38,008 nucleotides of DNA from a virus: positions 1-38,008 of the IMG/VR virus record IMGVR_UViG_3300047170_000095; one strand, written 5' to 3'. The position numbers and the translations under genes are program-made. Below, piece by piece: positions 10,578 to 11,712 of the stretch. Numbering within the stretch: position 1 is the stretch's first letter; the number at the start of each line of letters is the position of its first letter. The notes beneath the pieces are model-generated. The model was not told the origin of the DNA. It ran no database searches and saw only the letters and a list, made by a program, of their open reading frames with translations.

Positions 10578-10867
10578 CTTGTTTATAAGTAGCTTTATAC
10601 ACAATAAACAAGCGGATAGATCATTTCTGCCTATCTCTCGGACTTTATTTATTCTCCGAGTTCGGAACATCACATACGCTTTTTGCGTCCTCAGGGGTTG
10701 TTCTCTCACGGTGATATGCAAAATTTCTATTACAAAATAAACAATAAAACCAATCTCTATAAATTTCCTGTAAAACAATTTTATTTTTACAATTTTTACA
10801 GATTTCTTGCATATCTTCCGCCTTGTTAACCTTCTATGCTGCCATAGTAAGGCACTCCAAGTCAATT
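10578..10867 (-). mobile_element. Group I-like mini-intron A in the capsid gene (290 nt, no credible ORF)
   Basis: Paralogue of inserts B and C. It starts AATTGACTTGGAG and has the core GAACA..ACGCAAAAAGCGT..TGTTC. A large stem ATATGCAA/TTGCATAT is inserted, and there is a 9-bp 3' hairpin CTTGTTTAT/ATAAACAAG. Stops occur in all frames relative to the exons. Confidence 0.6.
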
Positions 10868-11101
10868 ACCCAAGGTTTATACAGGTCTGGTATGTTAAAC
10901 CTGTCCATACCTTCAATACCTGACATAAATTTGTAAGCATTGTTAGTATCTAAAGTCGTTGCTACTAAACTAAAATCACTAACACCAAGGTTAGTTGGAT
11001 TATCAGTATTCGAACCGCCTCCAGCATTAAGCTGAGAAGCTGCTGAAACGATGTAATCCCTTAAAGTTAAATCTTCCGCTTGACGCCAAATTGTTACTCC
11101 A
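10868..11101 (-). CDS. Major capsid protein, middle exon
   Basis: Open frame (V)GVTIWRQAEDLTLRDYIVSAAS...IPDLYKPW(V), bounded by inserts B and A. Confidence 0.7.
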
Positions 11102-11254
11102 CAAAGTGGGGATAAGTCATTTCTGCTTATCTCTGCAATTTTATTTATAGTTGCAGATCGGACTATCGCATACGCTTTCGCGTCCTCTGGGTTTAGTCTC
11201 TCAGGCTGTATTTAAACTTGCCCCTTGTTACCCTGTCGGGCCTCCAAGTCAATT
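11102..11254 (-). mobile_element. Group I-like mini-intron B (about 153 nt)
   Basis: Minus strand reads AATTGACTTGGAG, CCC/GGG hairpin, AACAAGGGGC...GCCT, then GAGAGACTAAACCCAGAGG ACGCGAAAGCGT ATGCGA TAGTCC. Hairpins CTGCAA/TTGCAG and GATAAG/CTTATC follow, ending CCCCACTTTG. Confidence 0.6.
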
Positions 11255-11551
11255 ACCAAAGGTTTAATGGCCACTTGTCAAGATGGACACGGCTAGACGC
11301 TCGGATACCCAAGCTAACACCTTTTTTTATCTAGCCTAAGAGGGCGTGTTGTTCAACATAATCATTATTTATAGATCATCCTACAACTTCTATTTTTATG
11401 CTGCAAGTCTAGAACCCTCTTGATCCTGAAGGATCACCTGCTATTGATGATACACCCAGTTCCAAAAAAAGCCATTTGCGCCATCGATGATATCTCGCTG
11501 GGGCACTTGTGCCGGCGGCACTCTGTTACTTCTATTGACCCCTTGCAGCCA
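11255..11551 (-). other. Structured, stop-filled spacer between inserts C and B. It may hold a 24-nt micro-exon at 11255-11278.
   Basis: Its ends copy the exon flanks (..GTGGCCATTAAACCTTTGGT, and TGG..AGTAACAGAG). Long-range stems are CTGCAAG/CTTGCAG, AGAGGG/CCCTCT and GGCTAGA/TCTAGCC. Confidence 0.4.
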
Positions 11552-11712
11552 CAAGGCGGGGAAACCTCTTCGGATCTCCCTCTCATAGTTACCTATGAGA
11601 TCAGACTATCGCATACGCTTTCGCGTCCCGTGAATTTAGTCGTTCAGGCTGCACACTTTCGTTGCTTGCCCCTTGTTGTCCTTAAGCTGCCTTAAGGAGA
11701 TCCAAGTCAATT
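11552..11712 (-). mobile_element. Group I-like mini-intron C, core (about 161 nt; may extend 3' into the spacer)
   Basis: Same architecture as B. The variable hairpin is CCTTAAG/CTTAAGG. The core is GACTAAATTCACGGG ACGCGAAAGCGT ATGCGA TAGTCT, followed by hairpins CTCATAG/CTATGAG and GGGAGATC/GGTTTCCC. Confidence 0.6.

Follow-up and report, generated by a model that had tools for sequence, protein, structure and literature searches.

P2-less group I introns in the major capsid gene of an uncultured tailed phage and a possible role of one of them in removing degenerate neighbouring inserts

Group I introns are established residents of phage genes. The td, nrdB and sunY genes of T4 carry them, and orf142 of Staphylococcus phage Twort is interrupted by three. 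Capsid genes with group I introns have been reported in Lactobacillus and jumbo gut phages. Among the small bacterial group I introns of tRNA genes are the Azoarcus tRNA-Ile intron, of about 205 nucleotides (nt), and the Anabaena tRNA-Leu intron. Here we analyze the major capsid protein gene in IMG/VR record IMGVR_UViG_3300047170_000095, a virus DNA of which positions 1-38,008 were studied (this whole stretch is called the window). Comparative analysis places three homologous inserts of this gene, I1, I3 and I4, in a single family of small group I introns that lack P2 but are canonical in all other respects. Group I introns are already known from phage capsid and ribonucleotide reductase (nrd) genes, and the three are new members of the class. 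The same gene holds two more unusual inserts, a single G and a 93-nt element named D. We consider our overall reading, a five-exon gene with three group I introns, highly probable; service provided by I1 to degenerate inserts in its vicinity is its less certain part.

The three introns share with described phage introns the RNA architecture, the presumed chemistry and the presence of several introns in one essential late gene. Their family also occurs in a ribonucleotide reductase gene, as phage nrd introns do. They differ in the lack of P2 and of P7.1/P7.2, in their size (196-338 nt), in being mostly free of open reading frames (ORFs), in having inserted at about a dozen positions of a single capsid gene family, and in their invisibility to the Rfam group I model RF00028. 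With the tRNA introns they have in common minimal, ORF-less, complete cores of about 200 nt and GAAA tetraloops. The Azoarcus and Anabaena introns, however, possess P2 and reside in tRNA anticodon loops, whereas I1, I3 and I4 carry P9.1/P9.2-type hairpins and reside in protein-coding genes. I3, with 196 nt, is slightly shorter than the Azoarcus intron, and is among the shortest complete group I introns known to us.

The gene for the major capsid protein (N4-gp56 family) extends over 10130..11954 and lies, like all of its parts described below, on the minus strand. The start at 11954, proposed in an earlier note on this DNA, agrees with the ORF list and with homologues. There are more than 1000 metagenomic homologues, mostly of 322 amino acids (aa), under the Joint Genome Institute name 'N4-gp56 family major capsid protein', and a crude concatenation of the capsid ORF pieces matches PHROG 1357 'major head protein'. 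The best database proteins are 92-93% identical to the predicted spliced product across its full length, and a cDNA-like copy of the spliced gene is thus not among them. A tblastn search with the capsid protein against GenBank phages gave no match, and the phage group is therefore uncultured. Contigs related to the window measure 36-42 kb, and soil, peat and freshwater are among their sample types. The window thus encodes the major capsid protein of an uncultured tailed phage of about 38-42 kb. Its remaining large ORFs are intact. It holds no second capsid gene, as the earlier note had also remarked, and encodes no tRNA, including suppressor tRNAs.

Splice junctions were set by tblastn of an intron-less homologue (P0001) and then by base-by-base comparison with another intron-less gene (contig L001, 10001-10969). 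Five exons result. They total 969 nt, which is exactly the length of the latter gene, and encode 322 aa plus the stop codon. Exon 1 (11748..11954, 207 nt, M1-D69, 94% identical to residues 1-69 of P0001) ends in ...GGCAUCGAU and is followed by I1 (11519..11747, 229 nt). Exon 2 (11414..11518, 105 nt) is composed of segments a, b and c and precedes insert D (11321..11413, 93 nt). Exon 3 (11283..11320, 38 nt) comprises VLAWVSERLAVS and the AU of Met117. After I3 (11087..11282, 196 nt), exon 4 (10898..11086, 189 nt) continues from the G of Met117 to the UU of Phe180, and after I4 (10560..10897, 338 nt), exon 5 (10130..10559, 430 nt including the stop codon) covers residues 181-322 with 91% identity. 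I1, I3 and I4 are each a complete group I intron. The predicted spliced junctions are GAU/CCG for I1 (string GGCATCGAT/CCGCCGGC), AU/GCG for I3 (GTGTCCAT/GCGTCAAG) and UU/UGG for I4 (GACAGGTT/TGGTACCGG), and removal of D would join exons 2 and 3 as CAAGAGGGT/GTGTTAGC. In the exon frame all four inserts contain stop codons and are not in-frame translated insertions, as an intein would be.

The earlier note had recognised three homologous, stop-filled inserts (its C, B and A, here I1, I3 and I4) interrupting the capsid ORF, and alignment of the three bears this out. It described them, however, as miniature introns of about 153-161 nt starting at UAAUUGACUUGGA, in which a single helix stands for P4-P6, and gave the capsid product as about 307 aa. 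The conserved block and the compensatory changes on which this description was built are real. Homologues nevertheless fix other junctions and a 322-aa product: the proposed 5´ splice sites have to be moved upstream by 31-35 nt and the 3´ splice sites downstream by 11-18 nt, the introns measure 229, 196 and 338 nt, and comparison with L001 disproves the alternative splice register as well. The peptides taken for exon ends (LEPRRVDVKPA, GVTIW, NIPDLYKPW, KVTDS) occur in no homologue and are intron read-through. The stretch between inserts C and B, regarded as a single insert, holds two exons (105 and 38 nt) and the 93-nt D. The coreless D, the 1-nt insert and the -1 shift of exon 2 had escaped notice.

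In each of I1, I3 and I4, the last 5-7 bases of the upstream exon pair with an internal guide sequence to form P1, with the final exon U opposite G. The P10 strand of the guide adjoins the P1 strand on its 5´ side and pairs with the start of the 3´ exon. In I1, P1 is CAUCGAU/GUCGAUG with the U·G pair (guide strand GUCGAUG at 11732-11726) and P10 is CGGCG/CGCCG (guide part at 11737-11733); only 2 of 5000 shuffles reached their joint score. I3 has P1 (UGU)CCAU/GUGG(CCA) and P10 CUUGAC/GUCAAG, and relatives at the same site form a P1 of 7 base pairs (bp), UGGCCAU/GUGGCCA. The helices of I4 are ACAGGUU/GACCUGU and UACCA/UGGUA. P10 shows covariation in relatives. The P1/guide pairing, for which no convincing candidate had been seen before, is a helix of 5-7 bp with U·G and an adjacent P10, located about 34 nt farther upstream.

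Downstream of the guide, AAACCnnnGnU, formerly interpreted as an exon flank, represents J1/3 and the 5´ strand of P3 inside the intron (the P3 strand of I1 is at 11720-11714). Its partner is the segment that separates P7 from P8, and the pairing covaries extensively. P4 (CUUG/CAAG), P5 (the first hairpin) and P6 (GGGC/GCCU, in I4 GCGG/CCGU) are all present instead of a single helix. P7 is GACUA/UAGUC (GAACA/UGUUC in I4), P8 is ACGC-GAAA-GCGU, and two or three P9 hairpins follow. The P7/P3´/P8/J8-7/P7´ block (11641-11602 in I1) had been recognised correctly, and so had the compensatory changes in P5, P6 and P7 and the group I character of these introns of an essential capsid gene. The core topology is P3-P4-P5-P6-P7-P3´-P8-P7´, P3 and P7 crossing as a pseudoknot. 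The architecture is canonical apart from the missing P2 and, contrary to the earlier suggestion, neither reduced nor new. Each intron ends in a G (11519, 11087 and 10560) that directly precedes the 3´ exon. The alignment to intron-less genes already refutes the miniature-intron description, with its different ends and missing helices, and we consider it hardly credible.

Group I cores contain the conserved elements P, Q, R and S (R, for example, ..GAGACUAAA.., and S ..GAUAGUCC..). The intron blocks UAAUUGACUUGGA, AACAAGG, GAGAGACUAAA and AUGCGAUAGUCC resemble the consensus of the Tetrahymena intron in a comparison made by eye. I1, I3 and I4 most likely self-splice by the usual two guanosine-initiated transesterifications, and this would restore a 322-aa frame collinear with the intron-less homologues. 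The inserts had been described as ORF-less, which is true of I1 and I3. The P6 loop of I4 contains an insertion of about 110 nt with a 55-aa CxxC...CxxC ORF (10812-10645, MQEICKNCKNK...CLFCNRNF...). No Pfam family matches this ORF. A homing endonuclease or maturase, since lost, may have left it behind as a zinc-ribbon remnant.

Relatives of the introns were gathered with a 24-mer from the core and with nhmmer, and eleven were aligned. RNAalifold, given no hints, predicts P3, P4, P5, P6, P8 and P9 from the alignment, with compensatory changes in 24 of 36 pairs. In the structure named above 98.7% of cells are paired, as compared with 34-40% after one strand is shifted. Covariance model R1, which represents the core and was constructed without I4 and without the P7 pairing, scores 133.3 bits for I1 and 122.8 bits for I3, and finds the held-out I4 at 71.7 bits; homology of the three copies thus far exceeds chance. 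Across 43 family members, 93.4% of cells are paired and 26 of 29 pairs show compensatory change. P7, although outside the model, covaries at all five of its pairs in the same members (GACUA/UAGUC, GACUG/CAGUC, GACUU/AAGUC, GAACA/UGUUC, GAGUA/UACUC, GAGCA/UGCUC). In 26 of 29 members, a script located P1 of 6-9 bp (5 bp in I3 of the window), terminating in U·G and immediately preceding J1/3. These P1 helices involve about a dozen exon sequences, at least eight of which are different positions of the capsid gene.

An alternative is that the repeats are not introns, but a mobile element acting at DNA level (a miniature inverted-repeat transposable element or an IS200/605-type element) or a structured non-coding RNA located in the gene by coincidence. 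Several ORF-less copies with a conserved sequence beside each of them would agree with such an element. That conserved sequence, however, is part of the element and base-paired with it, terminal inverted repeats and target duplications are absent, the guide of every copy is complementary to the exon junction at which that copy sits, and precise removal restores a conserved ORF. We assign this alternative a practically negligible probability.

The family is not confined to the window. About 10% of related capsid genes carry some copy of it. The 80 best relatives (528 kb) contain 8 further R1 matches, and nothing else at E<=0.001. Some capsid genes (contigs L018, L005, L006 and L010) have three to five copies, at sites that include those after residues 34, 118, 120, 122, 144 and 166. 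A further copy, L009:2704-2820 (114 bits), with its own P1 ACAACCU/GGGUUGT, belongs to a different gene of that contig and precedes the capsid gene by about 5.4 kb. R1 also matches copies in Roseobacter phage CRP-118 (96 bits) and Desulfovibrio phage 7757 (92 bits). The CRP-118 copy (L069, OR420741.1, about 2482-2881) is located between gp44 and gp45, both annotated as 'ribonucleotide reductase', and this GenBank record appears to contain an unannotated intron that splits one gene. Contig L006 has three copies of the family and, at 336-578, just upstream of its first capsid-homologous stretch, a different group I intron that RF00028 detects at 76.9 bits. The capsid gene or its immediate vicinity thus hosts two intron families or more.

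Exon 2 of the window cannot be read in a single frame. Segment a (11483..11518, 36 nt, PPAQVPQRDIID) is in frame 0 and terminates in AUCAUCGAU, the same 7 nt that end exon 1. It is followed by an extra G at 11482, absent from intron-less L001, which we regard as a putative 1-nt micro-intron. Segment b (11443..11481, 39 nt, AQMAFFGTGCIIN) matches the homologues in frame +1, with a and c taken as frame 0. The AG at 11441..11442 corresponds to the Glu95 codon GAG without its first G; this -1 shift creates a UAG stop in frame 0. Segment c (11414..11440, 27 nt, QVILQDQEG) is again in frame 0. The predicted a/b junction after removal of the G is ATCATCGAT/GCGCAAATGG, and the b/c junction, with G inserted or not, is ATCATCAAT(G)AGCAGGTGATCC. 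The same pair of +1G and -1 is found in L009, L010, L018, L044-L047, L056, L066 and L151/153/154, the AG remnant being AA in L046 and L151. Sequencing error is ruled out by the presence of the pair in many independent contigs. A search with the +1G pattern returned 58 metagenome matches, most of them from an unrelated GC-rich gene.

Substitutions at the variable sites of segments a, b and c, one conservative change excepted, are synonymous when each segment is read in the frame of the homologues. In segment b, all four variable sites are synonymous in frame +1 and non-synonymous in frame 0. Alternative splicing that skips either a and c or b is not accepted as the main route: each of the three segments evolves as coding sequence in its own frame. 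Suppressor tRNA or reassignment of the stop codon is rejected too: the window has no tRNA genes and its other ORFs are intact.

These substitution patterns also bear on the possibility that the gene is decaying into a pseudogene, or is a lethal and selfish allele maintained by homing and by co-infecting helpers, and that the frameshifts and D are simply damage. The spliced coding sequence, taken as DNA, still holds an in-frame TAG, one insert has no core, and the window has no second capsid gene; all of this would fit. On the other hand, more than 15 contigs, obtained from different samples and diverged in exon 1, show the same arrangement, the variable sites of a, b and c are the synonymous or conservative ones just mentioned, the small inserts described below always terminate in G, guides covary with their targets, and the other large genes of the window are intact. 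We therefore judge decay of the gene to be improbable.

The extra G follows directly after the copy of the I1 5´ splice-site sequence and precedes GCGC, which pairs with GCGU of the I1 guide. Placed on this guide, the site forms P1 and a P10-like helix (P10´) of 11 bp together, a value reached in 35 of 5000 shuffles. Other inserts occupy the same place in relatives: AG (L163, L170), UG (L164, L166), UAAG (L165) and UUAG (L169). All six insert types, with AG in two lineages, end in G, and their lengths are never divisible by three. Every one follows AUCGAU, the end sequence of the I1 5´ exon, and can thus pair with the I1 guide. In L163-L166 and L169 the insert is the sole defect, segments b and c being intact and in frame behind it. 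In each lineage, the guide pairs with the first bases of b as well, as GCGC with GCGU or, in L151 and L170, as GCAC with GUGU, the A at the third position of b accompanying the U of the guide.

A laboratory reaction offers a close parallel to this site. In trans-excision-splicing, a group I ribozyme without exons excises a single G located between P1 (with its U·G) and a P10-type helix, the first nucleophile being the 3´-terminal G of the ribozyme itself (PMC2532722). A core devoid of guide can also act on substrates that form P1 and P10 by themselves (Dotson, Johnson & Testa 2008, PMC2532722). The G at 11482 presents the same substrate context on the I1 guide: it follows the U of the P1 U·G pair, constitutes a terminal G and is succeeded by guide-pairing sequence. 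In contrast to the engineered reaction, the ribozyme would here be an intron just excised from the same transcript. We know of no natural case of trans-excision-splicing.

Insert D has no group I core. Neither covariance models nor Rfam nor nhmmer gave a match in its 93-nt version or in versions of about 950 nt, and D bears no similarity to the I1/I3/I4 family. The window copy has no ORF. It does contain an internal guide, AACAC-GCCCUCUU (11350-11338), which pairs with the end of exon 2 and the first 5 bases of exon 3. Its P1 comprises 8 bp with the last 8 nt of exon 2 (AAGAGGGU) and has U·G exactly at the junction; its P10 has 5 bp, and D ends in G. The joint score was reached in 12 of 5000 shuffles. 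The guide covaries with exon 3, AAUAU facing GUAUU in L044, while AAUAC and AGCAU still pair with GUGUU. D thus resembles a group I intron of which the substrate half is present and the enzyme half is absent. With only P1, P10 and the terminal G present, we do not class it as a group I intron.

In most relatives the D site is occupied by about 950 nt with a LAGLIDADG endonuclease ORF of 288-292 aa (in L009, 292 aa with PF00961 at E=7e-6, and PF14528), together with a promoter-like TTGCAG-17-TATAAT and a Shine-Dalgarno sequence of its own. L018 has 397 nt at this site, and the 93 nt of the window keep both ends only. L165 and L169 retain the guide despite a different endonuclease protein, and the guide is located at or after its stop codon. 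We find it somewhat more credible than its opposite that D of the window is an ORF-deleted remnant of such a homing-endonuclease cassette. In cyanophage psbA 'collaborative homing', a free-standing endonuclease homes together with an ORF-less intron. D is reminiscent of this in that its relatives encode a LAGLIDADG protein and are always linked to ORF-less I1. Unlike intron-borne LAGLIDADG genes, the D cassette lies inside coding sequence without a surrounding ribozyme, and the copy in the window has lost the ORF as well.

I1 and D may also touch each other directly. Segment L9.2 of I1, GCUGCAAG (11549-11542), is complementary over 8 bp to positions +7 to +14 of D, CUUGCAGC (11407-11400). L018, L044 and L046 extend the pairing to 9 bp. 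Both partners have other sequences in L165 and L169 (UAAGCUGC/GCAGCUUA) and still pair at the same places. I1 always lies 105-109 nt upstream of D. The I3 core was ruled out as remover of D, given that L018, L045, L046 and L047 have D and no I3.

Three linkage searches, each performed without requiring the other two elements, point in the same direction. Those with the I1 3´ end and with the micro-insert returned only contigs having I1, micro-insert and D together. The search with the D guide yielded unrelated matches too, but every capsid-gene contig that could be checked has all three; L161 has too little upstream sequence for the check, and L163, taken from the same contig, carries them all. 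As judged from this linkage, I1, exon 2 and D travel jointly as one mobile unit. Contigs with the unit differ by about 10% in exon 1 protein and are nearly identical in exon 2, which suggests that the unit moves between capsid alleles.

We propose that the gene carries two degenerate introns, the G at 11482 and D, which would be unable to splice alone and would be serviced by I1. Firstly, I1, probably freed with its terminal G, would pair again with the identical sequence 36 nt downstream and remove the micro-intron. Secondly, the I1 core, tethered through L9.2, would dock the P1/P10 helix formed by D itself and remove D. The micro-introns and D would most simply be full introns after core deletion, a loss that would have been tolerated because a working copy was available next door. 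That I1 excises micro-introns and D in addition to itself seems to us a little better than an even proposition; for I1 as a resident RNA enzyme that removes both and relocates no G, we would put the chances at about one half.

Several points weigh against our explanation. RF00028 finds nothing in the window at the gathering threshold (50 bits), and a search of 10000-12100 gave no match even at E<=10; this model is a detection tool, and a match to it does not define the group I class. None of 10 predicted spliced or edited N-terminal products is present, by exact look-up, in a collection of 15 billion proteins. P10´ at the extra G has only 4 bp. The 8-bp tether between L9.2 and D, assessed in the window alone, was reached by 46 of 3000 shuffles. 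We found no guide for the b/c junction, and the -1 shift persists even after removal of the G. Splicing in trans or in a second round would need high efficiency, the capsid protein being required in hundreds of copies per virion. The service by I1 is a well-motivated hypothesis built on comparative sequence patterns.

The same oddities might instead be handled by the ribosome, through bypassing of D and through programmed frameshifts or hops at the extra and the missing G. T4 gene 60 provides the precedent: its ribosomes use matched GGA codons to bypass a 50-nt coding gap that lies beside the mobA homing endonuclease cassette and is possibly a degenerate group I intron (PMC5009743). A run of seven U in segment b and a hairpin after the b/c junction would be in line with this. 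D, however, has a group I-style P1/P10 guide and no matched codons; the take-off codon GGU finds no landing codon in register, as the sole GGU at the end of D leads into the wrong frame. D in most relatives is about 950 nt long and has its own ORF. Further, relatives would need shifts of +1, +2, +2, +4 and +4 at one site, one of them crossing an in-frame UAA. A slippery heptamer is present at neither site, and no suppressor tRNA is encoded. Ribosomal handling of all inserts thus appears to us about as improbable as decay of the gene, or marginally more so.

The -1 shift needs a separate explanation, and its repair may be translational, via a GUGA stop/start overlap and a capsid protein in two pieces, or may take place at the RNA level. 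After removal of the G, translation would stop at the UGA in the frame of b (..CIINSR*) and restart at the overlapping GUG (Val97), and the capsid would be assembled from two chains of about 96 and 226 aa. The b-frame UGA overlaps the frame-0 GUG within AGGUGAUCC (11439-11431) of segment c, a stretch perfectly complementary to the 3´ end of E. coli 16S rRNA. All 13 contigs of the clade that were read share the overlap and have UAG or UAA as a frame-0 stop. The two residues after Asn94 vary freely (SR, NR, SK). Intron-less relatives use other codons at this stretch and at the hairpin, and GTGATC occurs in none of 66. Genes split by endonucleases and working as two chains are known in T4-type phages. 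Against these points, a Shine-Dalgarno sequence at the proper distance is missing, L163 has GUGAUC without the -1 shift, and an AlphaFold2 model of the capsid protein (predicted local distance difference test score 33) is too poor to judge whether residues 94-97 form a loop. To our knowledge, a split HK97-fold capsid protein has no precedent. We see restart, both as a mechanism and in its consequence of two co-assembling chains, as a possibility to be taken seriously, although a doubtful one.

The hairpin GAUCC-UUCA-GGAUC (11435-11422) of segment c lies just before the P1 strand of D, and L018 preserves it by a double synonymous change. A second guide in D (GAUUAU-GUUGA) was considered for the b/c junction and rejected; it is not conserved, and such scores occur by chance. 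Excision of AG or ARCAG as a further micro-intron is unlikely, no single length fitting all contigs, and we give ribosomal frameshifting at this site similarly slim prospects. The stronger version of I1 service would be that the excised G, carried on the 3´ end of I1, is re-inserted 39 nt downstream, so that GAG is rebuilt and the -1 shift repaired. Such relocation would be ribozyme-catalysed editing of mRNA, and the capsid chain would contain ..DIIDAQMAFFGTGCIINEQVIL.. as a result. It fits the AG/AA variation as GAG/GAA. Nevertheless, we regard it as unlikely, both as repair of the -1 shift and as part of a full version of I1 service.

Some observations concern the genome around the capsid gene. 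A 435-aa ORF (12660-13967, plus strand) adjoins it in opposite transcription and matches TROVE (PF05731, E=8e-12) and a Ro60-type vWA domain (PF25045); by these domains its product is an RNA-binding protein similar to Ro60/Rsr. In cells, Ro60 binds Y RNAs as well as misfolded RNAs. An Rfam search for Y RNA in the 700-nt gap between the two genes (11955-12659) found none. Among 185,579 genome assemblies searched, only two match, L167 (JAGWJP010000006.1) and L168 (PLLX01000034.1). These are contigs of 39-40 kb binned in a Patescibacteria and a Bacteroidales metagenome-assembled genome, respectively. Their size and content suggest phage genomes of the same group in cellular bins, and they are unreliable clues to the host.

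Taken together, I1, I3 and I4 add to the known phage introns a widespread, Rfam-invisible group I family, with about a dozen insertion sites in one capsid gene family. For annotation this means that capsid, ribonucleotide reductase and other genes are called as fragments. In the literature we found no natural precedent for micro-introns, for an endonuclease cassette reduced to a guide, or for dependence of such inserts on a neighbouring ribozyme. If our assumptions about I1 are true, the action of a group I ribozyme on substrates next to it, hitherto only engineered, would have its first natural example. Degenerate introns could then persist down to a single nucleotide, and the capsid gene would be a concrete case of apparent genomic frameshifts that are repaired at the RNA level.

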